Shown here: piece by piece, positions 10,518 through 28,879 of the stretch
How the letters are laid out: every line of letters starts with the position of its first letter
How positions within the stretch are numbered: the first letter of the stretch is position 1
Assembly (NCBI GenBank): GCA_951812775.1
Contig: OX638326.1
Coordinates: 3,823,180-3,887,179, forward strand
Reading direction: 5' to 3'
Origin: an uncultured Alphaproteobacteria bacterium
GTDB taxonomy: Bacteria; Pseudomonadota; Alphaproteobacteria; MPNO01; UBA2964
DNA length: 64,000 nucleotides
The notes under the pieces: generated by a model
Told to the model about the DNA's origin: nothing
Database searches by the model: none
The model's input: the letters and a program-made list of their open reading frames with translations, nothing else
Program-made: the position numbers and the translations under genes

Positions 10518-12688
10518 CTCGCCCTGGTGGAGTTCGGTCATTGATTTGACCAATGGCAAACCGAGGCCTGTACCTTCATAGGCCCTCTCCAATCTGGAAT
10601 CCGCCTGACCAAACGGTTGCAGGATGATATTTATCTTGTCGGCGGGTATGCCGATGCTGGTATCACTGACTGAAAAGACAAACCCGTTTGCCCCGATGCG
10701 GGCAATGAGTTTTACACTGCCACCTTCGGGCGTGAATTTAACGGCATTGGATAATAGGTTCAGGAGAACCTGTTTGATCATCCGCTCGTCTGCCATTAAC
10801 TCGGGAAGATCGTCGGGGATATCTGCAGAAAGCGTGACATTGCCCTTTTCGGCTCTTTCGGCAAGCATTTTTAGGGCAGTGGCGACAATACGGCCAAAGC
10901 CAAAGGGAGCTTCATTGGGCTCCAATTCGCCAGCCTCAATCTTCGACATATCGAGGACGTCGTTGATGATTTCAAGAAGATGGGAGCCGCTATTATAGAT
11001 GTCAGTCGAGTATTCGACATATTGAGGAGATCCCACAGGGCCAAAGGCCTCGGTTTTGATAATTTCTGAAAACCCGATAACCGCGTTTAACGGTGTCCGG
11101 AGTTCGTGACTCATATTAGCGAGAAATTCTGTTTTGGCGCGGTTTGCCGACTCCGCTGTTTTACGTGCTTGCTCCTGTACTTCTTCGGCTTTCTTCCGTT
11201 CCGTGATATCGCGAAAAGTGTAGATGAACATTTTTTTGTCGACATGTTCCGAACGTCGTTTATTTGCCTTGATAGATAGTCGAGACGTACTGATCAGCAG
11301 CTCTATAATAAGCTCTCTTCCGTCTTGGGTCGTCAGGGGGAATTCGGCCGGTCCGAACATATTGTCACTTAAGCCACCTCTTTGGTCCTCATCTCCTTCA
11401 GCTTTGTTGTATAGGGCCTCGATTTCTTTCGACCAGGGTAAATAGTTGTGAATGGGCTGATCCATGGCGTCATCTGTTGTGATGCCCAGTATCTGTCCTG
11501 CTGCCGGATTGAAGAGCTCTACTACGCCGTCTTCATTAACTGTTGCGATACCATCAAAACTGTCATCGACCATGCTATTCATCATCGCTCGACGATGCAT
11601 CGCCTCAACACGATGCTCAAAAATCGACAAGGTTTGGGCGTCGATTGATCGCCAAAGGCCAACAACATAGGAGAGACCTGTTACAAGTACCCAGGGAGCA
11701 GTATCGACAATGATCGGCCAAGCTGCCAGTACGCCCAGGGAAATCCCACCGCTTAAGAAAATGACGGACCCTGTACAGAATGCGCCGATTCGCCAAGAGG
11801 TACGATCAAGAAAAGGGCCAAGAAAAATAGCAAGGAATAAAGCGACAATCAGAACCGGCCAAGTGTCCAGTCGATGGATCATCCGGTTCTGGATAATCGT
11901 TTCAAAGGCGAGCGCTTGCAGGACTGGACCAGGAATCACTTTGTGGACGGCAACGTTTAGTGGTCACCAAGTTCCACGGCCGTGGCGCCCACAATAACTC
12001 GTTTTCCGGCTACGGTACTATTGAGAAAATTTCCCTGGATGACGTCCATATAGGACAATCTTGGAAGCGTGTCCGGTTGGATACCCAGATCAATATAAAA
12101 AGAACCATGTGGCATTTCCTTGCTCGTCGCGAGGATGCCAGCCATGCTGGTGATGTTATGGCCTTGAATGTCGTCGGCGGTGAGATAGCGCCTTACGCGG
12201 CCATCCTCCTCTACTCGGATATTAACCGTTGCAAGATGAGCATTCGCGCCGACTGTTGGTACGGGAACGGAATGAAAAACCTTTGTTTCATGACCCTTAG
12301 CGGCATGGAACTGTTTGAAGACGGGCAATAAAACGCGGCCATTAGCGCGGGTAATTGCGTCTCCCAAGGCTTTGTCATCTTCTTCATTGGAATGGGAACT
12401 AAAGTCAATATCGAGGGCAACAGACTTAGCACCGGCGGCGAGGAGGCGGTCTATAATCTGGGCGTGATAGCGCCGCGGCCACGGCCAGATGTTGAGTTCT
12501 TTCAGGCTCCTTGTGTCGATTTCGACAACAACAATTTCCTGGCTGGCTTCCCGCTTCAGGAGCTTGAAAGCGAGATCTGTGAGAGCAAAACCTAAGGACG
12601 ACAAAAACTCGCCGAGATATATTCCCGCGACGGTAAGAAACACCACCAGATGGGGCATTATTCGTCTCAGTGTATTTCGGTCTTTCAA
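10428..12688 (-). pseudogene. CHASE2-sensor / PAS / histidine kinase, split by a 1-nt frameshift between the CHASE2 and TM regions
   Basis: 11957..12688 is a CHASE2 domain (IVVVEIDTRSLKELNIWPWPR...GATAVELGDH*). 10428..11939 continues the CHASE2 C-terminus (IPGPVLQALAFETII), then three TM helices, a PAS domain, HisKA (MSHELRTPLNAV) and HATPase. The frames switch at GGTGACCACTAAACG (~11957-11966). Confidence 0.7.
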
Positions 12689-14249: not shown

Positions 14250-15953
14250 ATGAATCAGTCGACCGGGTCTCAATGGGGCCATAAAAAAAATAAATTATTT
14301 TTTATTGGTGCATTCGTTTGCATAACGTTTTTACTTGGATTTTCGTTTGCGCAGTCTTCTGGCGGGGCCAACGACGCCGGAAAGATTCAGGAACGGCTTG
14401 AACGGCCGGCCGAGAAACTAAGCGAAATCGATTCTATTGCTGCTCCGAAAACAGAGAAAACCGAAACCAGGAAGGAATCCGAGAAATTTCGTCTGATAGG
14501 GGCACAGCTGGTTGGAAACAGCGTTTTTACCTTGGCGCAGCTCGCACCGATTTATGAACCTTACCTCAATCGGGAAATCTCGATTGCCGAGGTCGACAAG
14601 ATCGTAAAGGCGATCACCGAAAAATATCACAAAGATGGATATTTCCTGACGCGCGTCTATGCGCCGCCGCAGGCAGCCGAGTTTGGCATTCTGGAACTCC
14701 GCGTGGTGGAAGGGTTCGTGGAACGCGTTGAATTCAAGGGCGATAAGCCGGGAAGATCGAGCTTGTTCAAGGGTTGGGCGGCTAATATTCAGGCAGAGAA
14801 ACCTCTTAAGCTTGGCACCCTTGAACGAAACCTGCTCCTTATGGCTGATATCCTAGGGATCGGCGTAACCCCGAGCGTCAAATAGATTGACCTGGAAAGA
14901 GGAGCGTATCGTCTTGAAATCGCCGTGACTCACCAGAAAGTGGGCGGTTTCGTGAATTTCGACAATCGTGGTACGACGGCTGTTGGACCTTTACAGGTCT
15001 ATGCAGGTGTAAACCTAAATTCCATTATTGGCCTTCTTGAACGAACCAGGCTGGCTGTCTTCACAATTCCCCAGACACCTGAAGAACTTCGCTACGTAGA
15101 GTTTCAACAGGACCATATTTTGAATGGTGCCGGGACTCAGGCATCGATTTTTGCGTCGCGCAGTATTGTGGATTTGGGAGATGAAGCGCTTTTTACCAAA
15201 GAGAACAGCCACGGAACGCGAATTTCACTGGAAGTCTCTCACCCTCTCATCAGGAGTAGGGATCTCAATCTTTTTGCTTCAATCAAGCTGGATGCCTTCG
15301 AATCCGACAAGAGTGGAGATAATGGCACGTTTGATGACAAGCTCCGGATCTTAAGGCTGAAGTCGCGGTTCAATTCGTCAGATGGTTGGGGCGGTACGAA
15401 CTGGTTGTCAGGTCAGTATAGTCAGGGTTTCGACATATTTGGCGCCTCCGACGAAGAATCCGGATTTGTTTCGAATACCAACGGACGTGCTGACTTTTTG
15501 AAAGTCAGAGCAGATTTTACACGGGTGCAGAAAATCGTTGAACATCTCGATCTGCAATTGTCGAGTGCGGGACAATGGTCACCCCATACATTGTTGTCAT
15601 CAGAAGAATTTACGGTCGGTGGACAGAACTTCGGCCGGGCATTCGATCCGTCAGAAATTAGCGGTAACCTCGGTGTTTCGGGATCTGCTGAACTACAATT
15701 CAACTTACCTGCCGATCTGAAGCCTGTCTTGGATTCGGTGCAGCTTTACGGATTTTATGATGCCGGTGCGGTTTGGGGCGTGGGATATACACGCGCATCG
15801 GTAGTCTCTGCCGGTGGTGGAGTAGGGTTGTCATTACCGTACAATTTTCGGGCGCAGTTTGAGGCTGCGATGCCCCTTACCCGGCAAAGCGATAGTGGTG
15901 AAGCGGAACGCAAGGACCCCCGCCTGTATTTCAGCATAAGCAGTCAGTTCTAA
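14250..15953 (+). pseudogene. TpsB-type (ShlB/FhaC/HecB family) outer-membrane transporter with POTRA domain, interrupted by an in-frame TAG
   Basis: 14250..14885 encodes signal peptide + POTRA (LELRVVEGFVERVEFKGD...LERNLLLMADILGIG). An in-frame TAG sits at 14883-14885. 14925..15953 in the same frame encodes the beta-barrel (GGFVNFDNRGT...RLYFSISSQF, C-terminal aromatic residue). Confidence 0.7.
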
Positions 15954-16562: not shown

Positions 16563-17967
16563 CTAAAGCCTGATGACGGCCATCTTGTCCTGGGTCAGGT
16601 CGTGCATGGTGTGACCGATTCCGCCGGTGCCATAGCCTGACTGTCGCCGTCCTGCAAACGGCATCCAGTCGACTCGAAAAGCTGTGTGATCATTTATCAT
16701 GACAGCCGTTGCATCCAGAGACCGTATCAGTTTGGTGGCGGTGTCGAGTCGTTGCGTAAATCCAGCTGCCTGAAAAGCAAAGGGTAGGGCGTTGGCACGA
16801 TCAATCGCTTCCTCAATAGTCTCATAGCTATAGACTGCGAGTACGGGGCCAAAAATTTCAGCAGTTGAAAGACGTGTGTCGCTACAAGGGTTCAAAATTA
16901 CTGTAGGTGCAAAGGCAGTTTCACCCAATTTTTCGCTACCACACAGAACATCTCCACCGCTTTCCATGGCCTCAGATACCCATTCAGCCACGCGCGACAC
17001 TTCGCCCGGGCGAATGAGGGGGCCAACCTCGACCTTCTCCTCAATTGCATTTCCCACGACGAGCTTGCTCGCCTGTTCGGCGATAAGTCCGGCGATATCA
17101 TGCGCCATCGATGCTGGTGCAAAGACGCGCTGAACCGATACGCAAACCTGTCCAGCGTGGTAAAATCCACCTTTGACCAAAAGGGGCAGCATTGCGTCGA
17201 TATCTGCGCTTTCATCGATAATAACCGGCGCGGCACCGCCATGTTCTAATGCCGCCCTGGTGCCCGGTGCGAGTTTTGATCGCAGCATCCAGCCAACGCG
17301 GGCTGATCCGATAAAACTGAAAAATGCTACACGCGGGTCTGTAATAAGACGTTCTGCCGTAGGAATGTCACAGGGAAAATACTGGCACCATTCTTCGGGG
17401 AGTCCGGCCTCATATAAGATGTTTACAAAGCTTTGCGCCGAAAGCGGTGTGTCATCTGCCGGTTTGATAATGACGGGGCAGCCCGTGGCGATAGCGGGTG
17501 CTACCTGATGGATAATCAGATTTAGTGGGTGATTGAATGCGGAAACCGCGACAACCGGCCCAATCGGTTCCTTGCTGGTAAAGGCCATTCGGCCGGCGCC
17601 GGCGGCGGTGAGATCCATTGGAATTTCGTGTGCCAGTGAGATGACTTAATTCCTTGGCAGCGAGTTCGACACCATCGATCGCACGGTCGACTTCGATCCG
17701 GGCATCAATGAGCGGCTTGCCCCCTTCATTGGCAATTTGAAAAGCAAGCTCGTCAAAACGCTCACGCATGAGGGCGCTGGCTTTGTGCAAAACAGAAATC
17801 CGCTGATGGGCGGGAAGCCAGCTATCGCGATCACGATGTAATCGATCAGCGGCGGTGAGCCACTTATCGGCTTCTTCCCATGTGCCTAAAGAGACTTCAC
17901 CGATGGTCTCGAGAGAGAACGGATTGCAAACAGACAGGATGGCATATTCCTTGGCTTTCGCACGCAC
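16563..17967 (-). pseudogene. aldehyde dehydrogenase (NAD(P)+) family, split by a 1-nt frameshift
   Basis: 17452..17967 encodes the ALDH N-terminus (IANEGGKPLIDARIEVDRAIDGVELAAKELSHLTG). 16563..17618 encodes the rest (HEIPMDLTAAGAGRMAFTSKEPIGPVVAVSAFNHP...catalytic Cys region GQVCVS). The frames switch at ACTGGCACACGAAATT (~17625-17640). Confidence 0.7.
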
Positions 17968-18044: not shown

Positions 18045-19598
18045 TTAATCCTCGAAGCCGTACTCTTTCCAGCGGGCGTTGACCTTATCCATGTCTTCCT
18101 TATGCGGGATGACCATGGCGGGGTAACGATCGCCGTTATATTGCTCTTCCGGTTCGAAATCGAGGTTAACGGTCGCATCGATGAGGACCCGGCACCATTT
18201 GCCAGTGCCAAAGAGCATCGGATCCCGGTCTTTGAGGCGCGTCGATGGATCCAGCAATGACCCCCATGAACCTGGGAAAAAGACGATGTCATCTTCGGCT
18301 GCATTGACGCGATAGGCAAAGGCCCAATCCACCGCCGCATAATCGTGAATGTCGATGTCCTGATCGACTACCCAGATATGTTTGTATCGAAGATGCGATG
18401 CGTTTGAGCCCCAGATTGCGGCGGCTGCCTGTTTTGCCTGACCCCGATAGGTCTGGTTCAGCTGGATGAACAGCGTCGTACCGTTATTGGCAGGGGCGCA
18501 ATGGACGTCCGTCACACCTGGAACACCGGCACGTTCCAGAACATTCCAGGCCACACCAGCTCGCTGTACCGAACTCATAATGCTGTTCTCATTCAACATT
18601 GACGGTAGGGTGCCCTCGAGCGTGCCCCGGAAAATAGGCTGGTCGCGATGGGTAATAGCAGTGACTTTGGTGACATGCTTTGGTCCCTGATCGCCACCGA
18701 AATAACCGGTATATTCGCCAAACGGGCCCTCCATCTCGAACGTTGCCGGATCAGGATCAATAAATCCTTCAACCACCAATTCAGCGCTGGCTGGTACCAT
18801 GATGTCACTGGTCTCGCATTTGACGAGTTCAACTGGCTTGCCACGGATGGCGCCCATCACGTCATATTCTGAAACACCGGTTGGCACAGGGGCAGAAGCA
18901 CAATACGGCATGCAGGGTTCCCAACCATAGACGTGAGCAACCGGCATTTTCATGCCGCGGTCAGCCCATTTCTGGAAGTGAACACCCCAGTTCTGCGCGC
19001 GCCATAGGAGGACCGGCAGAGTGTCTTTTTGACCCAACATTCCCCGATAGATACCCAGGTTATGAACACCAGTGTCGGGGTCCATCGTAATCGTTGCCTG
19101 GAAGGTGTTGATGTAGCGGCCGCCATCTTCGCGATGCCATTTTGGAATTGGAAAATCGTACAGGTTAATATCGTCGCCTGTGACGATGTTTTCCTTTACC
19201 GGCCCGTTATCTACTTCAACCGGTGCAACTCGTTGGCTCAGATAGTAGCGCGTGGCCTGCACCATATCGGTAACAGATGCATCTTTTGGCAGGCCCAGCG
19301 TCATTGCGATGCGCGAGAAGTTCGACATACCGCCAGTAAATAGCTGACTGCAGCGCGCGTCATCGCCGTTATAACCGCCGATATTCTTGAACAGCAGGGC
19401 AGGGCCGTTGCCTGTACCAAACGCCTTGCGGGCGACGGTTCCCAGTTCGCAATCCCAATCGACCTCAGCGTTGATTTCCTGCAATTCGCCTTCGGCGCGC
19501 AGTGCTTCGATCCATTCCCGAAGATCGCCATATGCTTTGGGTTGCAGTCTGTTCGAGACACCGCCAAAGGCGTCAATATCATTGTCTGTTCCGGCCAT
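18045..19598 (-). CDS. UbiD-family (prFMN-dependent) decarboxylase, VdcC/BsdC-like paralog 1
   Basis: 517 aa; ALLFKNIGGY, GIYRGM, SEYDVMGAIRGKPVELVKCET, EGPFGEYTGYFGG, VVDQDIDIHD motifs align with phenolic-acid decarboxylase C subunits; distinct from the canonical ubiD at 40566..42065. Confidence 0.75.
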   Translation of the reverse strand: MAGTDNDIDAFGGVSNRLQPKAYGDLREWIEALRAEGELQEINAEVDWDCELGTVARKAFGTGNGPALLFKNIGGYNGDDARCSQLFTGGMSNFSRIAMTLGLPKDASVTDMVQATRYYLSQRVAPVEVDNGPVKENIVTGDDINLYDFPIPKWHREDGGRYINTFQATITMDPDTGVHNLGIYRGMLGQKDTLPVLLWRAQNWGVHFQKWADRGMKMPVAHVYGWEPCMPYCASAPVPTGVSEYDVMGAIRGKPVELVKCETSDIMVPASAELVVEGFIDPDPATFEMEGPFGEYTGYFGGDQGPKHVTKVTAITHRDQPIFRGTLEGTLPSMLNENSIMSSVQRAGVAWNVLERAGVPGVTDVHCAPANNGTTLFIQLNQTYRGQAKQAAAAIWGSNASHLRYKHIWVVDQDIDIHDYAAVDWAFAYRVNAAEDDIVFFPGSWGSLLDPSTRLKDRDPMLFGTGKWCRVLIDATVNLDFEPEEQYNGDRYPAMVIPHKEDMDKVNARWKEYGFED

Positions 19599-19757
19599 TA
19601 TCCTGTTCTTTCAAGTTCCATACGCTGGCGTGTGGTTGTGTTAATTCCGCGACGAATATTCGTCAACCGCAATACTGAAGTTTCACCGTTTTGAGCGGCT
19701 CACCCCCAATTCGTCGGCAGAATTTCAAAATTTTAGGTATAAATCAAATTTAATTTG

Positions 19758-19774
19758 TTTATATTAAATATAAA
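19758..19774. promoter_or_regulatory. A/T palindrome TTTATATTAAATATAAA in the AT-rich divergent region between the UbiD-like gene and the LysR gene (candidate LysR-type T-N11-A box)
   Basis: 7-bp inverted arms with a 3-bp spacer; lies in the 254-bp very AT-rich intergenic region 19599-19852. Confidence 0.3.
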
Positions 19775-19852
19775 TACAAATTATGGATTGTTTGTCTGAA
19801 TTTTTTGAAGTTTGCCGTTTGTCTATGATCTATCTATCTGGTCAAAATTGAC

Positions 19853-20779
19853 GTGGTTGATCTCCGTAGTTTTGATTTCAATCTTGTTCGGGTGCTGGTC
19901 ATGCTCGAGGAAGAAAGAAGTGTAACCAGCGCGGCAACACGTCTCGGCATAACACAGCCTGCGGTAAGTGCAGCTTTGGCCCGTATGCGCGAAGCATTTG
20001 ATGATCCATTATTCATAAGAACCCAACGGGGCATGACGCCCTCTATCCGGGGTGCAGAGTTGGCGCGCGCGGCAAAGTTGGTTTTGCATGATTTTGAAGA
20101 GCTGTTTGCGACTAAGTCCTTTGATCCGGCAACGGCAGAGGCAAGCCTGACTGTCGGCGCCAACGATTACGGCCAATTCTCTATCGTGGCCCCCTTGCTG
20201 AAGACTATTCGGAACTCAGCCCCTGGCATCAGAATTAATGTACGGCCTTTGGAAGATGATATTTGCGGGCAGCTCGAACGCCAGGAGATAGATGTCGCCA
20301 TTACGTTGCTGTCGAAATCGCCCCAGAACGCCATCGCGACCCGTCTCTTCAGTGAAGATTTTGTCGGAGCCGTTGATAAGGCAAATAATTCTGTTGGCTC
20401 TAGAGTCTCTCTGGATGAGTTCTGTGGGTTTGAGCATGTGCGTGTTTCAGTTGCTAACACGCGGCTCACGGATCCTGTGGATGAGGAGCTCAAGATCAAA
20501 GGTCGTCGTCGCGATATTGTTTTGACGATACCGAACTTTTTTATGATCCCCAGCCTGCTTCGCGGATCCGATCTTTTTAGTGTCGTTCCGCTAAGACTCA
20601 CGCGGTACTTTGATTGGACATTGAAGCCCGTCGCACTGCCGCTTCACCTTCCGGGTTTTACGATGAACCTTATTTGGCACCAGCGAACGGTAGACTCGCC
20701 ACGTCACGTATGGCTGCGAGAACAGCTACAATCTATTTCGCGCTCAATTGAAAAGGGCGCGGCGGATAAAAACCGCTAA
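19853..20779 (+). CDS. LysR-family transcriptional regulator
   Basis: 308 aa; N-terminal wHTH LVRVLVMLEEERSVTSAATRLGITQPAVSAALARMRE; divergent from one UbiD-like gene and followed by a second. Confidence 0.85.
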   Translation: MVDLRSFDFNLVRVLVMLEEERSVTSAATRLGITQPAVSAALARMREAFDDPLFIRTQRGMTPSIRGAELARAAKLVLHDFEELFATKSFDPATAEASLTVGANDYGQFSIVAPLLKTIRNSAPGIRINVRPLEDDICGQLERQEIDVAITLLSKSPQNAIATRLFSEDFVGAVDKANNSVGSRVSLDEFCGFEHVRVSVANTRLTDPVDEELKIKGRRRDIVLTIPNFFMIPSLLRGSDLFSVVPLRLTRYFDWTLKPVALPLHLPGFTMNLIWHQRTVDSPRHVWLREQLQSISRSIEKGAADKNR

Positions 20780-20789
20780 CTATTGCTCG

Positions 20790-22340
20790 TCAAACCGGTT
20801 TAAGCGGATCGCCCCATTTATCCATGCCAAGCTGGGCCCAGCGATTACGGATGTTTTCTGCATCCGCTTCGTCCGGGTGGATTGTCGGCGGATACCGTCG
20901 ACCATCCTCACCAGGTTCGTAATCCAAATTGATGGTGCAGTCGAACAAGACACGGTGCCATTTCCCGGTGCCAAACAAATGGACATTGGAATCACGTGTT
21001 CTGACGCTGGGATCCAGTCCGGCGCCCCAATTCTCCGGATAAACGACGAGATCACCTTCTCCGGCGTTAAAACGCCACGCCATTGCCCAATCGATAGCAT
21101 CGTAATCATGCACATCAATGTCTTCATCGACGACAGTGACATGTTTGTATCGAACATGGGATGCGGAATTACCCCATAACGCGGCAGCAACCTGTTTCGC
21201 CTGTCCGCGATAGGTCTGCTTGATTGAAACAACTGTATTCACACAGGCCTGGATGGGCATGCCAAAGACGTCCTGAACACCTGGGACGCCCGCGGACTCA
21301 AGGGCATTCCAGGCGGTAGCGGATCGTTGGATCGAACTCATAATCGGGTTTTCGCCATAACTACCTGGAATGGCTCCTTCGACACAACCGCGGAAGATCG
21401 GTTTATCGCGATGGGTAATACAGGTGATCTGGGCGACATGTTTCGGGGAATGGTCGGGCGCGTAATAGCCGGTAAACTCGGCATAAGGACCCTCGGGTTC
21501 AAAGGTTGAGGGGTCGGTCGAAATCCACCCTTCAATGACGATTTCTGCATCAGCCGGAACCTGCAGCGGAACAGTTTCGCAATCGACAAGGTCGACGGGC
21601 TTACCGCGGATCGAACCCATAATGTCATATTCGGAAACTGACCGCGGTATCGGAGCACCACCGGTAAAGCCCATCGAAGGTTCCCAGCCGATAACAAAGG
21701 CAACCGGCATTTTGTCGCCGCGTTCCATGTGCTTGGCATAATGCGTGCCCCAACCCTGTGCCCGCCATAAAAGAACACCAAGCCGGTCCTTATCGAGAAC
21801 CATCCCGCGATAGATACCGATATTGTGGACATCTGTATCCGGGTCTTTGGTTACACAGCCAGCATAAGTCAGGGCGTAGCGGCCACCGTCGCCACGATTC
21901 CATTTTGGAACCGGGAATTTCAGCAGATCGATATCGTCTCCCTTAAGAATGTTCTCTTTTACAGCGCCAGTTTTGACGGTGTTGGGAGTGACCTGATTGT
22001 TAAAAATGGTTCGGCAAACCTGGACCAGGTCCTTCACAGGCGTATCGCGTGGTATACCGAACATCATTGCTAGACGTGAATAACTGCCCTGGCCTCCGGT
22101 GAAGACCTGAGAGGAAACGGCGTTGGGTCCGTTATAATCTGTGATGTTGTTGAACAGAAAGGCGGGGCCGTGGCCGGTCCCCTGTCCCATACGGATAATG
22201 TTGCCCAATTCGACGTCCCAGTTCACTTCCGCGTCGATTTCAGCGAGTTCCCCTTCTTTGCGCAGGGCGTCAATCCAACCCCGGAGGTCGCCATAGGCGA
22301 TGGGGGTGCGTTCTACGCTGGGTTCTTCTTGCTCAGTCAT
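20790..22340 (-). CDS. UbiD-family decarboxylase, VdcC/BsdC-like paralog 2
   Basis: 516 aa; same motif set as paralog 1 (AFLFNNITDYNG, GIYRGM, SEYDIMGSIRGKPVDLVDCET, EGPYAEFTGYY). Confidence 0.75.
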   Translation of the reverse strand: MTEQEEPSVERTPIAYGDLRGWIDALRKEGELAEIDAEVNWDVELGNIIRMGQGTGHGPAFLFNNITDYNGPNAVSSQVFTGGQGSYSRLAMMFGIPRDTPVKDLVQVCRTIFNNQVTPNTVKTGAVKENILKGDDIDLLKFPVPKWNRGDGGRYALTYAGCVTKDPDTDVHNIGIYRGMVLDKDRLGVLLWRAQGWGTHYAKHMERGDKMPVAFVIGWEPSMGFTGGAPIPRSVSEYDIMGSIRGKPVDLVDCETVPLQVPADAEIVIEGWISTDPSTFEPEGPYAEFTGYYAPDHSPKHVAQITCITHRDKPIFRGCVEGAIPGSYGENPIMSSIQRSATAWNALESAGVPGVQDVFGMPIQACVNTVVSIKQTYRGQAKQVAAALWGNSASHVRYKHVTVVDEDIDVHDYDAIDWAMAWRFNAGEGDLVVYPENWGAGLDPSVRTRDSNVHLFGTGKWHRVLFDCTINLDYEPGEDGRRYPPTIHPDEADAENIRNRWAQLGMDKWGDPLKPV

Positions 22341-22499
22341 TATCCGTACTCTCGTTCATTACTTGAATTTCATAAATTCACGGGGCGGGTACTGATAGAA
22401 CATCGGTTGCATCGCGTCCAGCCGAGCATTCTTGTAGAATCATTCTCGACCGGTTAGCGTGTGCGCCACGGGACTAATATATTTGCGGAGCGTATCAGG

Positions 22500-23324
22500 A
22501 TGCCCAAGCACCTTACTCAGGATCAGGTTGACGCCTATCATCGTGACGGGTTTGTCGGACCGGTTGACCTGTTTTCGACTGAAGAGGCGGCGCAGCTGCG
22601 CGCGAAGGTCGAAGAGGTTGAGGCGGAGATGGGCTCGCAAATTCAGCAACGCTGCAAGATTAAAGCGCACCTGCCTTTTACGTTTTTATGCGATGTGATT
22701 TCCCACCCAAAACTGCTCGACGCCGTTGAAGACATCATCGGTCCCAATATTCTGTGCTGGGGGTCGAGCTTTTTTCAGAAAGAAGCGCATGATCCGGGCT
22801 TTGTTTCCTGGCATCAGGACTCGACCTATTACGGTCTGGAGCCACCGGATACCTTGACCGCATGGCTGGCCATTTCGGACAGCAATCTAGAGAGCGGTTG
22901 TATGGAGTTTATTCCGGGCACGCATAATCAGGGCATCTACGACCATAAAGAGTTTAAAGCGGAAGACAATTTACTGTCTCGTGGCCAGACAATTGTTGGC
23001 GTCGATGAATCCAAAGCCCAGTCGATGATTCTCAAGGCTGGTCAGTTTTCTTTCCATAAGGAAGATTGTGTTCATGGCTCAGCCCCGAACAATTCGGATG
23101 ACCGTCGTATTGGGCTGTCTATTCATTATGTCCCTCCCTCAATAAAGGAGACTGGTTTCCCTGGTGCATCAGTGATGGTGCTACGTGGCGAGGATACCGA
23201 AGGGCACTGGGCAGTCGATATGACGCCGAAGAAAGACTGGGACCCAGAGTGTCTCGCGGAACTGGATCGGGTCTGGACCATGTATGATACAACGCCTCCG
23301 GAAGAACGGGAATCGGTGGCCTGA
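22500..23324 (+). CDS. phytanoyl-CoA dioxygenase (PhyH) family Fe(II)/2-oxoglutarate oxygenase
   Basis: MPKHLTQDQVDAYHRDGFVGP...WHQDSTYY...HxD...H facial triad context typical of PhyH family; start moved to ATG 22500 with upstream RBS. Confidence 0.7.
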   Translation: MPKHLTQDQVDAYHRDGFVGPVDLFSTEEAAQLRAKVEEVEAEMGSQIQQRCKIKAHLPFTFLCDVISHPKLLDAVEDIIGPNILCWGSSFFQKEAHDPGFVSWHQDSTYYGLEPPDTLTAWLAISDSNLESGCMEFIPGTHNQGIYDHKEFKAEDNLLSRGQTIVGVDESKAQSMILKAGQFSFHKEDCVHGSAPNNSDDRRIGLSIHYVPPSIKETGFPGASVMVLRGEDTEGHWAVDMTPKKDWDPECLAELDRVWTMYDTTPPEERESVA

Positions 23325-23329
23325 TCGCT

Positions 23330-24139
23330 GTGCCGATACCGGCACTTCAAACCACGAATATTGAAGGTCAAACCCTCGCCTGGCGCGAAGCTGGTGACGG
23401 AGACCCGTTGATCTTGCTGCATGGAATTGGCGGCATCTCGGAAAGTTGGGAAGCGCAACTCAGCGGCTTGAGTGATTGTCGCCGCATTATAGCCTGGGAT
23501 ATGCCGGGTTATGGCGGTTCTGATGGTTTCGACAATTCCGCACCGACCGTGGATGATTATGCTGGGCGTCTTTGTGCTCTGCTGGATTACCTGAATATCG
23601 ACCAGGCCCATATTTTGGGACAATCGATTGCAGCCCTCATAGCTGCCAGATACTGCGTACAGAATCATAAAAAGGTGCGGAGTTATATTTTTGCACATGG
23701 TCTGACCGGATTCGGCGGATTGGAACCAGCAGAGCGCGAAAAAGCGAAACGAGGTCGGCTGGAGGTGTTTAACGCGCTCGGGCCAAAAAGATTCGCCTAT
23801 GAAAAAGGGCCTGCAATTATGAGTCCTGGTGTTTCCGATGCCGCACGTGAGAAGGCCGTTGGCATCATGGCACAGGTCAAACCGGCAGGATTTCGGCAAG
23901 CTGTCGAGATGCTCAGTACGGCGGATTTTTTCGCAGATGTTGCCTATATGCAGACTCCATCCCTCGTTTTATGCGGTGCCGATGACCCCGTCGCTCCGGA
24001 GTCAATTTATCGTTCTGTACAGGCAGCCCTGACAAACGCACAATTTTGCCTTATTCCTGATGTAGGTCATTATTCGGCGACAGAAAACCCGGCCTTGTTT
24101 AATGCGACAATTTCAGGTTTTCTGGACGATGTTGCCTAA
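23330..24139 (+). CDS. alpha/beta-fold hydrolase
   Basis: 269 aa; LHGIGG...GQSIAA nucleophile elbow (GxSxA) and C-terminal His region. Confidence 0.7.
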   Translation: MPIPALQTTNIEGQTLAWREAGDGDPLILLHGIGGISESWEAQLSGLSDCRRIIAWDMPGYGGSDGFDNSAPTVDDYAGRLCALLDYLNIDQAHILGQSIAALIAARYCVQNHKKVRSYIFAHGLTGFGGLEPAEREKAKRGRLEVFNALGPKRFAYEKGPAIMSPGVSDAAREKAVGIMAQVKPAGFRQAVEMLSTADFFADVAYMQTPSLVLCGADDPVAPESIYRSVQAALTNAQFCLIPDVGHYSATENPALFNATISGFLDDVA

Positions 24140-24233
24140 TATTGTTTGTGTCATCTTTTATTTGACGCAGTGTCACAGGCGTGTAGATTCCGCCCATTGC
24201 GGATGAAGACATTTAATGAATAGGGAGAGAGTT

Positions 24234-25196
24234 ATGAAGTTTGTACCTTTAACACTCGCAACCGCCGCCGCGGTCGGGCTGGCCGCTTCGGCGTCTGCGC
24301 AGACCTTTGGTATCGGTTCGACTAAAGCCGGCGCCGTGTCGCAAATTACGGCGACAATTTCGAAAGCTGTTTCTGAACATGCCCCAGGCGTTCAGATGCG
24401 TAAGCAGACCATGGGCGGCACACAGCAGTATATTCCTGTGGTCAATGCTGGTGAACTGGGCTTCGGTATTTCGAATATTTCTCAGTACCATATGGCCAAG
24501 CAGGGCATCATGCTGTCAAAGGGCAAGAAGCATAAGAATTTGCGCATTATAACCACCATGATGAAATTTACGGTTAGCCCGGTTGTTTCTCTTAAGTCGG
24601 GTATTACGCGCGTTTCACAGATGAAAGGCAAACACGTCGCCAGTGGTTTTAAAGGTGCGCCGCTTTTCGTCAACATCACGAGTGGTGCTCTGGCAACCGA
24701 TAACCTGACGATGAAGGACGTTAAGAATGTTCCTCAGGTTGGTCTTGTGCAGCATTGGCGTGCTTTCATGGCCGGCAAAATTGACATGGCGATCGCCGCC
24801 GCAGGTTCGGGCTTCGTGAAACAGATGAATGCTAAAATCAAAGGCGGTATTCGTCATATCTCTTTTGACAAATCACCCGCTGCTCTTAAGCGCATGCAAA
24901 AGTGGTTCCCGCGGTCAGAATGGGCCGTCATTCAGCCGGCGAAAGGTTTGACAGGCGTTATCGAGCCGACAAATTTTGTCAGCTACGACTTCCTGCTCTG
25001 GACTCACAAAGGCCTCTCCAACGACGTCGCTTATAAGGTTGCAAAGGTCATGCACCAGCAAGAAAAGCAGCTTAAAGAAGGCGGCCCACTGTGGCGTTCC
25101 TACCGTGCCAACAAGCGCATGGCGAAGGATCAGGGTTATGCCTATCATCCTGGTGCTGTGAAGTACTATAAGGAAGTAGGCCTCTGGTCTCGTTAA
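24234..25196 (+). CDS. TAXI-family TRAP transporter solute-binding protein
   Basis: signal peptide MKFVPLTLATAAAVGLAASASA; GGTQQYIPVVNAGELGFGISN TAXI signature; strong RBS GGGAGAG before ATG 24234. Confidence 0.75.
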   Translation: MKFVPLTLATAAAVGLAASASAQTFGIGSTKAGAVSQITATISKAVSEHAPGVQMRKQTMGGTQQYIPVVNAGELGFGISNISQYHMAKQGIMLSKGKKHKNLRIITTMMKFTVSPVVSLKSGITRVSQMKGKHVASGFKGAPLFVNITSGALATDNLTMKDVKNVPQVGLVQHWRAFMAGKIDMAIAAAGSGFVKQMNAKIKGGIRHISFDKSPAALKRMQKWFPRSEWAVIQPAKGLTGVIEPTNFVSYDFLLWTHKGLSNDVAYKVAKVMHQQEKQLKEGGPLWRSYRANKRMAKDQGYAYHPGAVKYYKEVGLWSR

Positions 25197-25326: not shown

Positions 25327-27312
25327 GTGTCCGATACGTCCTCGACGGCGGCAGCGCCAGAAAATAAAAAGGGTGCAGCGCTTCTTGAGCAATGGAAAGA
25401 AGGCCCCCTTGTAAACGTGTTGTGCCTCACCTGCGGAGCACTCATTACGATTATCGCCCTGAGCTGGGCTATCGAATTACCGCTCAAGGTTGGCTTCGAG
25501 TGGTTGGACGAGCAGGCTATGGTCGCCTGCTATGGTCTCGTGCTGACTATCGTCTTTATCCGATTTCCAGCGAGCGGTGGGAAAAACCGACCTTCAATAC
25601 CCTGGTATGACGTTATCCTGGCTGCGCTAGGATTTGGCACATGCTCTTATCTGCTCTGGGTGTATGGAGATATTGAGTTAAATCCGTTTGCCATGCGGCC
25701 AACGATGTTTTGGATAAGTCTCGTTATCTTACCGATGACAGTCGAGGCCTTGCGCCGGACCGCCGGTATGAGCCTGACAATTATTTTTTCTGTCTTTGTC
25801 GTTTATGCCTATCTGGGGCATTTCCTGCCGGAACATGGGTTCCTGTTTCAGGCGCCACATCGGTTAACAGCGGAACTGGGAACAAATAACGCGTCGCTCC
25901 TTGGGTTGCCGCTCAAAATTATCGTTTTGACTGTCGTGCTCTTTATTTGGATGGGGCAGTTGCTTCTCCATACTGGAGCGTCGGAATGGTTTACAGATCT
26001 CGCAGCGGCGATGATGGGTCGTTCACGGGGTGGTTCTGCAAAGATCGCCGTTGTTGCTTCGGGTTTCTTTGGATCAATTTCTGGTTCCGCGGTTGCTAAT
26101 GTTGCCTCCACAGGCGTGATTACGATCCCGTTAATGCAGCAGGCGGGGTATGACCGCAAGAGCTCCGGCGCTATTGAGGCCGTTGCCTCGACCGGTGGAC
26201 AAATTATGCCACCTATCATGGGTGCTGCCGCCTTCCTGATGGCGGAAATTCTGGAGCTGGAATATACCGAGATTATTCTCGCAGCGCTGATTCCGGCGGC
26301 GTTGTATTATCTGGCGGTCTTTGTTCAGGTCGATCTGGAAGCCGCCAAGAACAAGATTGCGCCCCTACCAAAAGATCGAATTCCCTTAATTGGGAAGGTT
26401 ATGAGAGAAGGCTGGTTCTTCCTGCTGCCCTACGTGATTCTGGTGTGGACATTGTTCTCGTTGAATTTGCCACCGCAGGAATCTGCTTTCTGGGCTGCGA
26501 TTTCAGTGGCCGGCGTTAGCCTGATATTTGGGTATAAGGGGCATCGTATTTCGCCCAAGCAAATTTGGGACTCAATCGCTGGCTGCGGTAAGTCATCGGC
26601 TGACATCGTCGCGATTGGCGCGATGGCCGGTATCATCATCTCGATACTGGATCGGACAGGCCTGGGGCAGTCATTGACCTTGCTTCTCGCCGCTGTTGGC
26701 GAAGACAGCCTGTTCCTGCTGCTGGTCCTTACAGCGATTGTGTCGATCCTGCTTGGCATGGGAATGCCAACCTCGGCGATCTACCTGTTGTTGGCCACGA
26801 TGATCGCGCCGTCGCTGATCAAGCTCGGCATTCACCCGATTTCAGCCCATATGTTCGTGCTGTATTTCGGTCTGATGTCGATGATTACGCCGCCCGTGGC
26901 AATAGCCGCCTTCGCGGCGGCGAACCTATCGGGGGCCAAACCGATGGAGACCGGCGCAACGGCCGTTCGACTTGGTTGGATCGCCTATGTCGTGCCATTC
27001 ATATTTGTTCTGTCGCCTGCCTTGCTGTGGCAGGGCGAACCAATGGCCATCTTCACGGGGGCGGTGACAGCCTTTATCGGGGTGTGGTTTGGCTCATGTG
27101 GGCTGATCGGCTACATGTTTGGGCCACAGGGAACAATTGGCAGGGTCTTGCTGTTTGTCGCAGGAATATTGCTCCTGCTACCAGCGGACGCGATATCAAA
27201 CGGCTTGTTGATCAACGGTATCGGCCTGGCAATCGGGGTAATCTGGGGAACCAAAGATTATTTGGCGAACCCGAAGTCGAAGAAAACCGCTGAAGTGAGT
27301 AGCGGCGAGTAA
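25327..27312 (+). CDS. TAXI-type TRAP transporter fused permease (DctQ-like + DctM-like)
   Basis: 661 aa polytopic membrane protein directly downstream of the TAXI SBP. Confidence 0.75.
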   Translation: MSDTSSTAAAPENKKGAALLEQWKEGPLVNVLCLTCGALITIIALSWAIELPLKVGFEWLDEQAMVACYGLVLTIVFIRFPASGGKNRPSIPWYDVILAALGFGTCSYLLWVYGDIELNPFAMRPTMFWISLVILPMTVEALRRTAGMSLTIIFSVFVVYAYLGHFLPEHGFLFQAPHRLTAELGTNNASLLGLPLKIIVLTVVLFIWMGQLLLHTGASEWFTDLAAAMMGRSRGGSAKIAVVASGFFGSISGSAVANVASTGVITIPLMQQAGYDRKSSGAIEAVASTGGQIMPPIMGAAAFLMAEILELEYTEIILAALIPAALYYLAVFVQVDLEAAKNKIAPLPKDRIPLIGKVMREGWFFLLPYVILVWTLFSLNLPPQESAFWAAISVAGVSLIFGYKGHRISPKQIWDSIAGCGKSSADIVAIGAMAGIIISILDRTGLGQSLTLLLAAVGEDSLFLLLVLTAIVSILLGMGMPTSAIYLLLATMIAPSLIKLGIHPISAHMFVLYFGLMSMITPPVAIAAFAAANLSGAKPMETGATAVRLGWIAYVVPFIFVLSPALLWQGEPMAIFTGAVTAFIGVWFGSCGLIGYMFGPQGTIGRVLLFVAGILLLLPADAISNGLLINGIGLAIGVIWGTKDYLANPKSKKTAEVSSGE

Positions 27313-27321
27313 CAGTTTGGG

Positions 27322-27351
27322 AAAGAGCGGCTAGAGCACTGGCCGCTCTTT
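27322..27351. terminator. hairpin between convergent TRAP permease and thioesterase genes (possible bidirectional terminator)
   Basis: AAAGAGCGGC-tagagcactg-GCCGCTCTTT, then TTACCAACTTTTTG. Confidence 0.4.
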
Positions 27352-27780
27352 TACCAACTTTTTGCCCTTCTCAAGAATTTCCTCCGGCCACGGCGTGGAT
27401 TTGCGGGTGATCGTGTCTAGCGAAACACACACTTGATCATTGATCGCACATATTTCGTCGGTGCAGGCATCGATCATCACACCCCATACATGAAGGCTTT
27501 TAGGCGTGAAGTTGATAAAGCAAGTTCTGATTTGAATCAGGTCACCCGGCAGGATCTCCCGCTTATATTCAAAGTTTTCGGTCACTGCCGCCATACCGCG
27601 GTCATTTTCTCGCATATAGGTTGGCGTAATATTCGCCGTCGTGAAGGTGAAATAGGCCGCTTCGTTAAACGCGCGGCTGTAATAGCGCACGTTGGCGTGC
27701 CCCATATGATCGGTTTCCATTGGATAGAACATACCCTGATAGGCGATGTTGAAATCCTTGAAGCGTTCCAGCGGTGACAT
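27331..27780 (-). CDS. acyl-CoA thioesterase, hotdog-fold (4HBT/YbgC-like)
   Basis: 149 aa; size and hotdog-fold sequence features; low-complexity-free, conserved D/H-rich N-terminal region. Confidence 0.6.
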   Translation of the reverse strand: MSPLERFKDFNIAYQGMFYPMETDHMGHANVRYYSRAFNEAAYFTFTTANITPTYMRENDRGMAAVTENFEYKREILPGDLIQIRTCFINFTPKSLHVWGVMIDACTDEICAINDQVCVSLDTITRKSTPWPEEILEKGKKLVKERPVL

Positions 27781-27925: not shown

Positions 27926-28879
27926 ATGTTCAAACAACTCGGTGTTTCGGCTGCCACGCCCTGCTCCCATCCCGTAATGCGGCAAATTATTGTCGACGCC
28001 TATCCTGATGCAAGGTTGGTGGATGATGAGAGGATTACAGACGAGGATCGTTTGATCGAGTTTCTGTCGGGTTGTGATGCGGCAATTGTCGGGTTTGAGC
28101 CGCTGACAGATAAGGTTCTCTCGGCCCTCCCAGAACTCAAGACCATCGCCAAGTTTGGAGCGGGTTGTGAGACGATAGATTTCGACGCCTTGAAGGCGCA
28201 CGGCATCCGGTTTGGCTACACGTTTGGTGTGAACAAGCTGTCGGTCGCGGAGTTGGCGCTGAGTTTTATGATCAGTGCCTTGCGTTGGATTACGCCGCTC
28301 AACCAGTCTATGCGGGCGAGTGATCGGCCGCGCTACCGCAATGGCGAGCTGTTAACAGGACGCACGGTCGGTATTCATGGCTGCGGCAATATCGGTAAAG
28401 AAGTGGTGCGCCTGCTCAAGCCCTTTAACTGCACGATCTTGTCCTGTGATACGGAATATTACCCAGAATTTTATGCCGAACACGGCGTCACGCCGGTGTC
28501 GTTTGATGAATTGCTGCAAAGATCAGAGGTTCTGACCCTTCATCTACCCAAGACCCAATCGACCCGGGGGCTCTATACGCGGGAGGTGCTTGAACGCATG
28601 CGCCCGGAAGCCGTTCTCGTAAATACCTGCTGCGGTGAAATTGTTGATGAGGATGCGCTTGCGGATCGATTGGAAGATGAGTCGCTACGGGCCGCCTGTT
28701 TTGATGTTTTTGCCGTGGAACCTGCTGAAAATGACAGGTTACTTAATCTACCGAACTTTTTGGCGACACCGCATATCGGTGCCAGCACCGAAGAGACCCG
28801 TGTGGCTATGGCGCAGGCGGCTTTGCGCGGGCTAACGGAAAATGAACTCGTTGAACCGGAAAAATATTACGACAACTAG
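27926..28879 (+). CDS. D-isomer-specific 2-hydroxyacid dehydrogenase (NAD-binding)
   Basis: GRTVGIHGCGNIGKEV Rossmann motif and ...TPHIGASTEE catalytic His region. Confidence 0.75.
   Translation: MFKQLGVSAATPCSHPVMRQIIVDAYPDARLVDDERITDEDRLIEFLSGCDAAIVGFEPLTDKVLSALPELKTIAKFGAGCETIDFDALKAHGIRFGYTFGVNKLSVAELALSFMISALRWITPLNQSMRASDRPRYRNGELLTGRTVGIHGCGNIGKEVVRLLKPFNCTILSCDTEYYPEFYAEHGVTPVSFDELLQRSEVLTLHLPKTQSTRGLYTREVLERMRPEAVLVNTCCGEIVDEDALADRLEDESLRAACFDVFAVEPAENDRLLNLPNFLATPHIGASTEETRVAMAQAALRGLTENELVEPEKYYDN

Follow-up and report, generated by a model that had tools for sequence, protein, structure and literature searches.

To our knowledge, substrates have been assigned to no more than about a dozen branches of the UbiD family. 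A stretch of 64,000 nucleotides (nt) from an uncultured Alphaproteobacteria bacterium (assembly GCA_951812775.1, contig OX638326.1, positions 3,823,180 to 3,887,179 of the forward strand; hereafter the window) carries two paralogous UbiD-family genes, termed UbiD1 and UbiD2 here, which belong to a branch of their own. UbiD1 (18045-19598, minus strand; 517 amino acids, aa) is the downstream, more conserved paralogue and UbiD2 (20790-22340, minus strand; 516 aa) is the upstream one. The two proteins are 58% identical over 497 aa and each matches the three Pfam domains UbiD_N, UbiD and UbiD_C (PF20695, PF01977 and PF20696); a preliminary description of the window, made from its letters only, had recognised them as paralogues, and both open reading frames (ORFs) lie exactly where it placed them. 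Comparison with related loci (numbered with the prefix L) demonstrates that UbiD2 followed by UbiD1 is a fixed tandem module, into which a gene for a LysR-type regulator has been inserted in the window lineage. Both proteins are probably decarboxylases that use prenylated flavin mononucleotide (prFMN) and serve an aromatic-acid catabolic module.

The best solved relative of both paralogues is PhdA, the phenazine-1-carboxylic acid decarboxylase of M. fortuitum (7PDA; 38% identity to UbiD1 and 34% to UbiD2 over ~420 aa; 252 and 237 bits). PhdA has in common with them the UbiD fold, the EGPFGE catalytic loop and, presumably, (N-hetero)aromatic acids as the substrate class. However, PhdA is encoded by a single gene that is accompanied by a gene for the UbiX homologue PhdB, has His at a metal-ligand position which is Asn in UbiD1 and Gly in UbiD2, contains Gly-Asp and Ser where both paralogues have an invariant Glu-Asn pair and Arg346, and lacks the ~60-aa C-terminal extension, which Fdc/Ppc-type proteins match. 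The second-best solved relative is the 2,5-furandicarboxylate decarboxylase HmfF/HmfG (6H6V, 6H6X), in which R304 corresponds to Arg346 of the paralogues and H296 to Asn338. In addition, related loci in which the UbiD1-clade gene is accompanied by genes for a xanthine-dehydrogenase-type molybdenum enzyme and an AMP-forming ligase follow the logic of the furoate pathway. Unlike the window cluster, which contains neither a ligase nor a molybdenum enzyme, the HmfF system has a single decarboxylase with an adjacent UbiX (HmfG), and its similarity to the paralogues is much below that within the UbiD1 and UbiD2 clades. The pyrrole-2-carboxylate decarboxylase HudA (PA0254; 4IP2, 7ABN) also shares key residues: its Glu278 corresponds to E295 and its Glu-Asn pair is kept as E337-N338. 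HudA differs in that it is one dimeric enzyme that has the canonical His ligand and, at the position of Arg346, Ile; its active-site residue Y279 is matched in UbiD1 but replaced by Phe in UbiD2.

Three further systems resemble the locus in gene organisation or family membership. PpcA and PpcB of phenylphosphate carboxylase (Ppc) are the precedent for two co-encoded paralogous UbiD-like proteins that work as one enzyme, and PpcB is 32% identical in a plasmid match. Ppc, however, includes gamma and delta subunits and a phenylphosphate synthase, whereas the present pair occurs in Alphaproteobacteria with O2-dependent oxygenases as neighbours, and both of its members have the full catalytic network. 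Anaerobic o-phthalate clusters encode an importer for an aromatic dicarboxylate, of the TAXI type of tripartite ATP-independent periplasmic (TRAP) transporters, beside a UbiD-family decarboxylase, as here, and such TAXI-TRAP systems adjoining UbiD-like genes import o-phthalate in denitrifiers (PMC13040137). Those clusters differ in that a CoA transferase or ligase and UbiX are present and that they have one decarboxylase, not a pair; this decarboxylase is the remotest of the solved relatives. VdcBCD/BsdBCD belongs to the same superfamily, but differs by its B and D subunit genes, and VdcC is remoter from the paralogues than PhdA, HmfF, HudA, TtnD and Fdc.

Family Placement of UbiD1 and UbiD2

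The generic UbiD model TIGR00148 is the sole family model whose cut-off (244.85) is passed by the two proteins, with 304 bits for UbiD1 and 306 bits for UbiD2. All more specific models fail by wide margins. VdcC is the highest-scoring specific NCBIfam model for both paralogues despite the missed cut-off (NF041204, 271.6 and 286.8 bits versus 650), and the label "VdcC/BsdC-like" that they had received in the preliminary description was thus too specific and pointed to the wrong branch, as VdcC is also remoter than PhdA, HmfF and HudA. The likeness to the alpha and beta subunits of phenylphosphate carboxylase that had been drawn fares no better: the scores of UbiD1 and UbiD2 (209 and 187 bits for alpha, TIGR02723, cut-off 564.6; 237 and 252 bits for beta, TIGR02724, cut-off 468.95) lie far under the cut-offs, and genes for gamma or delta subunits or for a phenylphosphate synthase are absent from the annotated window neighbours. 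Since the catalytic network is complete in both paralogues, a heteromer is conceivable but is not indicated. Assignments to the MenA pathway and to BagN were likewise dropped on NCBIfam cut-offs.

The paralogues are also distinct from canonical UbiD, as had been proposed. With the equivalog model NF008175 (cut-off 788) they score 180 and 167 bits, in contrast to 675 bits for the canonical-type ubiD of the window (40566-42065, minus strand), to which they are ~30% identical. This canonical gene itself stays below the cut-off of the E. coli-type model, and appears to encode a somewhat divergent alphaproteobacterial UbiD.

Among solved structures, the order of similarity is PhdA, HmfF (185-202 bits for the two paralogues), HudA (180-193 bits), TtnD and bacterial Fdc at about the same level, E. 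coli UbiD, A. niger Fdc1 and then B. subtilis VdcC (7AE4; 152-153 bits); AroY and InD rank below VdcC, and phthaloyl-CoA decarboxylase is last (56-75 bits). The 120 best database relatives (58-87% identity), which come mostly from metagenomes and alphaproteobacterial metagenome-assembled genomes (MAGs), all bear generic names. Plasmid collections contain no relative above 35% identity and no informative annotation, and in the literature searched no account of the clade or of its paired arrangement was found. In a simple neighbour-joining tree, the UbiD1 and UbiD2 clades are sisters with matching internal topologies. The family model scores, the ranking of solved structures and the generic naming of all near relatives therefore place UbiD1 and UbiD2 in their own, previously uncharacterised UbiD clade, separate from VdcC/BsdC, Ppc and true UbiD.

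Conservation of the Tandem Module

A scan of species-representative genomes with UbiD1 yielded 80 loci, mostly from MAGs of marine Alphaproteobacteria/Rhodospirillaceae, the closest being 98% identical; metagenome contigs were scanned independently with UbiD2. As the loci were gathered by similarity to the window proteins, and MAG and metagenome contigs overlap partly (e.g., L001 and L091), the 98 loci counted below are not all independent. Statements on neighbourhoods are based on tblastn and Pfam-annotated calls, because simple ORF calls gave spurious antisense ORFs in GC-rich loci.

In L001-L049, the orthologues of UbiD2 and UbiD1 are arranged head-to-tail on one strand with nothing between them, and the metagenome scan agrees with this order. 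Wherever a UbiD2-clade gene (at least 66% identity) has at least 400 nt of downstream sequence, the next gene is a UbiD1-clade gene on the same strand (98/98). The spacer between the two genes in the relatives has a median of ~113 nt and a range of 9-180 nt, and some of the genes overlap. The pair has been kept together to ~70% protein identity while all flanking genes were turned over between lineages. Pairwise distances of both paralogues over 50 loci correlate strongly (r = 0.94), with UbiD2 evolving ~1.2 times faster. The idea that the two proteins act together, which at first came from their pairing in a single stretch of DNA, is thus strongly supported anew by the tandem order kept throughout these loci.

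UbiD1-clade genes (64-78% identity) are also found as solitary genes in ~30 loci, mainly on soil and freshwater contigs, and in Xanthobacter and a Sterolibacterium MAG. This MAG (LJ_bin-2701) contains three UbiD1-clade genes on three contigs (L053, L064 and L072), two of which are directly preceded by genes for a TAXI binding protein and a short-chain dehydrogenase/reductase (SDR). A third, intermediate group of UbiD paralogues with 55-62% identity to UbiD1 and UbiD2, which is sister to UbiD2 in the tree, occurs in soil Alphaproteobacteria (L052, L063, L067, L068, L073, L075, L076, L079 and L080). Its members are divergent from, or located 2-8 kb off, UbiD1-clade genes, and a gene for an alpha/beta hydrolase often lies between.

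Catalytic Residues and Selective Constraint

Residues N180, R185, E244, E290 and E295 are invariant in the clade alignment, in 84/84 sequences of the UbiD1 clade and 51/51 of the UbiD2 clade. Of these, R185, E290 and E295 make up the E(D)-R-E network that is a hallmark of the UbiD family (PMC8988006), and E295 aligns with HudA Glu278, which is the acid-base catalyst of that enzyme (PMC7976604). Both paralogues look active in this respect. They are under strong purifying selection: ratios of nonsynonymous to synonymous substitution (dN/dS) relative to the nearest relatives, calculated with saturated synonymous sites, are 0.012-0.019 for UbiD1 and 0.015-0.018 for UbiD2. Identity to the L001 orthologue is 98% for UbiD1, 92% for PurD and 73% for the neighbouring hydrolase. 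The UbiD1 value is reached although dS is ~1.3; a peripheral catabolic enzyme, as UbiD1 is presumed to be, would rarely be so tightly constrained.

The putative metal site shows another pattern. We name its positions after Fdc1 N168, H191 and E233, which we take to be ligands of the Mn2+ that anchors the prFMN phosphate. The Asn and Glu positions correspond to N180 and E244, both among the invariant residues. At the His position, which is His in PhdA, HudA and the canonical UbiD of the window, UbiD1 has Asn203, and Asn is present in 74/84 members of its clade. The UbiD2 clade has His in 29/51 and Gly in 22/51 members, the window UbiD2 being one with Gly. Near this position, UbiD2 has an invariant His207, which may substitute. 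Within L001-L049, Gly in UbiD2 coincides exactly with the sublineage in which the pair adjoins PhyH and hydrolase genes, the window included, and His with the Rieske-adjacent sublineage.

Despite their similarity, the two paralogues have diverged at defined sites. Twenty-three positions are fixed (at least 95%) in each clade yet differ between the clades, and they cluster at 293-301, 366-378 and 447, the first of these segments surrounding the catalytic Glu loop. The active site of HudA comprises E278, Y279, E316, N318, W322, F432 and M434 (PMC7976604). Position 296, which aligns with HudA Y279, is Tyr in UbiD1 and Phe in UbiD2. Position 447 is Ser in UbiD1 and Ala in UbiD2, and probably corresponds to HudA F432, as extrapolated past the alignment end by way of the conserved Leu449.

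Other residues of the pocket are shared by both clades. E337-N338 is invariant in both and aligns with E316/317-N318 of HudA, in which N318 hydrogen-bonds the ring nitrogen (PMC7976604). R346 is also invariant in both and aligns with R304 of PtHmfF, the corresponding residues being Ser in PhdA and Ile in HudA. HmfF positions 296, 304 and 331 are H, R and R by alignment numbering. These three residues reportedly hold the distal carboxylate of furandicarboxylate. The shared E337-N338 and R346, together with the fixed active-site differences, suggest substrates that have, besides a ring heteroatom or a hydroxyl, one more anionic group, with related but different specificities of the two enzymes.

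Insertion of a LysR-Type Regulator Gene

The gene order given in the preliminary description, in which the two UbiD genes flank a LysR regulator, is correct. This order is, however, not a native design but the result of a lineage-specific insertion into a contiguous UbiD2-UbiD1 operon. The LysR-type regulator (19853-20779, plus strand; 308 aa), which contains the domains HTH_1 (PF00126) and LysR_substrate (PF03466), is encoded between UbiD2 and UbiD1 and divergently from UbiD1. Relative to L001, L002 and L008, the window contains an insert of ~1.1 kb, made up of the LysR gene and a spacer of 25% GC, which starts immediately behind the UbiD2 stop codon. At its right edge, alignment reveals a scar, namely a degenerate copy of the terminal ~30 nt of UbiD2 (19683-19716, minus strand): its sequence TGGGGGTGAGCCGCTCAAAACGGTGA matches the true UbiD2 3' end TGGGGCGATCCGCTTAAACCGGTTTGA. 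The ancestral UbiD2-UbiD1 spacer (19599-19682, minus strand), which aligns with the spacers of L001, L002 and L008, then follows. The AT-rich control region between LysR and UbiD1 (19717-19852), which came with the insertion, is missing from these three loci.

A LysR gene at the UbiD2/UbiD1 junction is not present in 96/98 related loci. The same arrangement elsewhere occurs only in L086 and L087, two short metagenomic contigs from one sequencing project, with 83% identity to the window in LysR and 93-95% in the UbiDs; the scar is not present there. Since these are the only other cases and the LysR proteins have already diverged to this extent, the insertion is old enough to have diverged, yet is limited to a small sublineage. 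The composition of the LysR gene is host-like and gives no support to a recent foreign origin. In L051 and L088, a single UbiD1-clade gene likewise has a divergent LysR homologue upstream of it (70% and 50% identity, respectively), and a further homologue (69%) adjoins a gene for a luciferase-like monooxygenase. Metagenome contigs searched with the LysR protein as the query gave no matches.

The divergent spacer between LysR and UbiD1 is 254 bp and contains a conserved palindrome, CAAATTTAATTTG (19745-19757), which is located in the inserted control region, is unique in the window and is conserved in L086 and L087. A sigma-70-like site lies at 19809-19780 (minus strand); such sites are not enriched over shuffled sequence. 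By analogy with the general behaviour of LysR-type regulators and with the divergent LysR-UbiD1 pairs in L051 and L088, this regulator is most likely an activator of UbiD1 that responds to a pathway intermediate and acts from the inserted AT-rich spacer.

Two elements of the ancestral spacer are found also in loci without the insertion. An inverted repeat at 19618-19635, ~20-35 nt upstream of the UbiD1 start, has one mismatch in the window, and the motif CCATACG-N4-CGTATGG occurs at the same spacer position in 23 loci (e.g., L001 9964-9981). This repeat might function as an operator or form a hairpin in the RNA. The other element, GACGAATATTCGTC (19651-19664), is a perfect palindrome of 14 bp that overlaps a TTGACG hexamer and is conserved in part in L002 and L008; an internal UbiD1 promoter or operator older than the LysR insertion may be located here.

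Genomic Context and Cofactor Supply

UbiD2 is divergent from a gene for a PhyH-family Fe(II)/2-oxoglutarate dioxygenase (22461-23324, plus strand; Pfam PhyH, 111 bits), and the region between them (22341-22460, or to 22499 with the ATG of MPKHLTQ as the PhyH start) presumably contains the promoters of both operons. An alpha/beta-fold hydrolase gene (23330-24139, plus strand; Pfam Abhydrolase_1 and Abhydrolase_6) starts 5 nt after PhyH, and is followed by genes for a TAXI binding protein (24216-25196, plus strand; TIGR02122, 116.2 bits, cut-off 84.35) and a fused TRAP permease (25327-27312, plus strand; TIGR02123, 572.6 bits, cut-off 320.65). Farther on are genes for a 4HBT_2 thioesterase (27331-27780, minus strand), a 2-hydroxyacid dehydrogenase (27926-28879) and an SDR (28876-29664, minus strand). 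Domain matches bear out this list of neighbours as it had been read from the letters; purD is also among the window neighbours of the pair.

The PhyH-family protein contains the motif WHQDSTY, in which His-x-Asp is complete, whereas SyrB2 has His-Gln-Ala. It is therefore predicted to be a hydroxylase-type dioxygenase. A halogenase reading was rejected on this triad and on the score with TIGR01762 (120.6 bits versus a cut-off of 226.3). The hydrolase is distantly PcaD/enol-lactonase-like, with 102 bits in the PcaD model against a cut-off of 256. Solved structures gave no ligand clue for the TAXI protein (at most 59 bits) or the hydrolase.

The divergent UbiD2/PhyH arrangement recurs in at least 16 related loci. 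Throughout the window sublineage, PhyH and the hydrolase are consistent partners divergent from UbiD2, and TAXI-TRAP genes are often next to them, less regularly. The block of thioesterase, 2-hydroxyacid dehydrogenase, SDR and purD genes is syntenic among close relatives only, and may be inherited synteny and not a functional link. Of the single catabolic route that had been drawn through the whole neighbourhood, PhyH and hydrolase thus stand as partners that travel with the pair, and TAXI-TRAP as a less regular one, but the remaining genes may not belong to it.

Other lineages have other partners. In a sister group, genes for the alpha and beta subunits of a Rieske ring-hydroxylating dioxygenase take the position of PhyH and hydrolase. 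L081 has a xanthine-dehydrogenase-type molybdenum enzyme, Rieske alpha and beta, a DUF1194 protein and then the pair in one operon, with a UbiD spacer of 9 nt. At 5815-7066 of L081/L082, Rieske alpha is called as two overlapping genes (164 aa with the Rieske part, 265 aa with the catalytic part), possibly because of a frameshift. In L118, the pair is preceded by genes for a cupin, a SnoaL protein and a molybdopterin oxidoreductase and is immediately followed by an AMP-forming ligase gene. In several marine loci, the pair adjoins a gene for a cytidine deaminase or a histidine kinase.

Single UbiD1-clade genes have similar company. L083 combines one with TAXI-TRAP orthologues (65-71% identity), HpaB, a VanA-like oxygenase and a ligase; L088 with LysR, TauE, a ligase, two TAXI proteins, TRAP and CoxLMS-type genes; and L090 with TAXI-TRAP and further UbiD and ligase genes. 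TAXI-TRAP genes are also beside UbiD1-clade genes in L064 and L072. The recurrence of carboxylate importers, ring oxygenases or hydroxylases, CoA ligases and LysR regulators points to peripheral catabolism of aromatic or heteroaromatic acids. The catabolic neighbourhood first proposed for the pair is plausible.

No UbiX is encoded in the 64-kb window as judged by tblastn with an E. coli UbiX query; the same query was validated by 60%-identical matches in three other loci. Intergenic spaces of the window contain no ORF for a ~75-aa D subunit, for which there is no room, and no Rfam family. The absence of an adjacent UbiX/B or D gene, as first described, thus holds on both counts, and prFMN would be supplied in trans. 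Because the canonical UbiD of the same genome needs prFMN anyway, a ubiX gene elsewhere in the genome is implied. In the three loci that matched the query, ubiX (60% identity to E. coli UbiX) adjoins single UbiD1-clade genes: L070 (11638-12198) and L071 (11697-12257), together with L168 (1836-2390). These loci represent two Xanthobacter genomes and one metagenome contig.

Several genes on the other side of UbiD1 are disrupted. The aldehyde dehydrogenase gene 3' of UbiD1 (16563-17967, minus strand) consists of two overlapping ORFs, both matching Pfam Aldedh; tblastn and DNA alignment place one extra base near 17628 (GGCACACGAA versus GGCGC-CGAA in relatives). The gene is intact in L001 and L008 (458 aa), and the two halves in the window are 84-85% identical to the L001 orthologue. 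The frameshift is either a very recent pseudogenisation event or an assembly error. Nearby, a gene for a TpsB/ShlB-type two-partner-secretion transporter (14250-15953, plus strand; POTRA_2 and ShlB) has an in-frame stop at codon 212 (14883-14885), and a CHASE2 ORF (11957-12688) and a PAS-HisKA-HATPase ORF (10428-11939) on the minus strand lie end to end in different frames. The latter two resemble one frameshifted sensor kinase, which would be the third disrupted gene within ~8 kb.

A Model of Sequential Decarboxylation and Its Alternatives

We propose that UbiD2 and UbiD1 are two separate enzymes that act one after the other. An aromatic or heteroaromatic acid, probably with more than one acidic group, would be imported, in the window organism through the adjacent TAXI-TRAP system. 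UbiD2 would carry out the first decarboxylation using prFMN, supplied by a UbiX encoded elsewhere, and its product, or a close relative of it, would pass to UbiD1 for the second decarboxylation, each protein forming its own oligomer. The ring would then be hydroxylated by the PhyH enzyme, and the hydrolase would cleave an ester, a lactone or a C-C bond. Sister lineages would use Rieske or molybdenum hydroxylases instead, sometimes after CoA activation. The aldehyde dehydrogenase, which is intact in L001 and L008 and frameshifted here, might act further downstream. After the insertion, UbiD1, with the aldehyde dehydrogenase gene, would be expressed from the LysR-controlled divergent promoter, whereas UbiD2 would keep the region shared with the PhyH operon. 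We assign a probability of roughly 0.5 to this sequence of steps as a whole. It explains why UbiD1 can be useful alone and UbiD2 cannot, and also the gene order, the full catalytic sites in both proteins, the fixed active-site differences between them and the tolerance of split transcription units.

Several observations weigh against sequential decarboxylation. UbiD1 is more conserved than PurD (98% versus 92% identity to L001), which is unusual for a peripheral catabolic enzyme, and in many marine loci (e.g., L105) the pair lies amid housekeeping genes without a catabolic partner. No ubiX is present in the flanks of any tandem-pair locus (about 100 loci). With Gly at the His ligand position of the window UbiD2 (Asn in UbiD1), prFMN binding by UbiD2 is not assured. 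The substrate class is read from a few aligned residues and variable neighbours, and if both enzymes need an Arg like HmfF R304, a plain scheme from dicarboxylate through monocarboxylate to arene is too simple. Promoter and terminator scans of the locus gave results no better than those with shuffled sequence. Finally, strict adjacency, spacers down to 9 nt or overlaps, and correlated evolution would suit a hetero-oligomer equally.

Indeed, UbiD1 and UbiD2 might together build a single prFMN (de)carboxylase, an obligate hetero-oligomer of which they would be the alpha and beta subunits; such a mixed dimer or hexamer would contain either active sites of two kinds or a catalytic site and a modified one. 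That UbiD2 is never found without UbiD1 directly 3' of it (98/98), at spacers as short as 9 nt and with some overlaps, fits such an enzyme, as do the correlation of distances (r = 0.94) and the strong constraint on both proteins (dN/dS ~0.015). A non-equivalent subunit could better afford the Gly that UbiD2 of the window lineage has at the metal His position, and there are precedents for paired UbiD-like subunits in Ppc and the aniline system. However, UbiD1-clade enzymes are solitary in many genomes, some of them with ubiX alongside, and the R/E/E network of UbiD2 is complete in 51/51 sequences. The window lineage tolerates a LysR gene that splits the pair into separate transcription units; the second paralogue of the soil relatives is encoded divergently from UbiD1 or 2-4 kb away and so is not translationally coupled; and the intergenic spaces of the window encode no small gamma- or D-type subunit. 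On this balance a hetero-oligomer is a possible but tentative alternative to the sequential action of two enzymes.

A doubtful alternative is that the proteins are parallel isoenzymes for different aromatic acids with a loose relationship or none, whose adjacency is synteny left from an old tandem duplication. The fixed active-site differences do indicate distinct specificities, both proteins are catalytically intact as judged from their residues, and the insertion in the window lineage gives them differing regulation. Against this, adjacency has outlasted divergence to ~70% identity and the replacement of all flanking genes, and the lack of any solitary UbiD2 among the 98 loci is hard to explain without selection for co-occurrence.

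A housekeeping, biosynthetic (cofactor, quinone or secondary metabolite) or carboxylating role is unlikely. The extreme constraint, exceeding that on PurD, and the several marine pairs without catabolic neighbours would fit a housekeeping function, but the genome already has a canonical ubiD, and genes for importers, aromatic oxygenases, molybdenum hydroxylases, CoA ligases and LysR regulators recur beside members of the clade. No genes for polyketide synthases, non-ribosomal peptide synthetases or prenyltransferases are among the annotated neighbours. As to carboxylation, all UbiD carboxylases so far that we know of are from anaerobes and have extra subunits. UbiD enzymes are nevertheless reversible in principle (PMC8988006), which would be compatible with carboxylation. 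Least probable by far is that UbiD1 and UbiD2 are C subunits of a VdcC/BsdC-type phenolic (hydroxyarylic) acid decarboxylase: the best-scoring specific NCBIfam model (272-287 bits) and the general UbiD motifs common to both proteins speak for it, but these scores are under half of the 650-bit cut-off, B. subtilis VdcC is only the 9th- to 11th-best solved relative, and a B (UbiX) or D gene adjoins neither the window pair nor the ~100 related pairs.

Implications

The clade of UbiD1 and UbiD2 is common in marine and soil Alphaproteobacteria and is very strongly constrained, yet is without an assigned substrate. Cultured carriers include Propylenella binzhouense L72, Xanthobacter tagetidis DSM 11602, Xanthobacter sp. 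KR7-225 and Faunimonas sp. B44. The family itself is known, but the literature searched does not describe the clade, its obligate pairing of paralogues that lacks UbiX and small subunits, or the non-canonical residue in place of the His ligand. A fixed pair with diverged active sites and without small subunits has not been described for prFMN enzymes of aerobic bacteria in the literature searched. Solving the pair would test hetero-oligomers in the UbiD family or tandem action on polycarboxylates, and could reveal a tolerated replacement of a metal ligand. A new reversible (de)carboxylase would also be of interest to biocatalysis and for the turnover of carboxyl-rich aromatic matter.

If the pair merely represents two ordinary sequential decarboxylases, what is gained is the annotation of a new subfamily, which is useful but not remarkable. 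A bolder possibility, which we regard as speculative, is that the two paralogues constitute an obligate prFMN machine for polycarboxylated (hetero)aromatics such as phthalate-type compounds, pyridine-, furan- or pyrrole-dicarboxylates or benzene-polycarboxylates, either as a hetero-oligomer with non-equivalent sites and a non-canonical metal/prFMN site or as a channelled two-step decarboxylase. Were this true, widespread marine Alphaproteobacteria would gain an O2-independent entry into poorly understood dissolved organic carbon.

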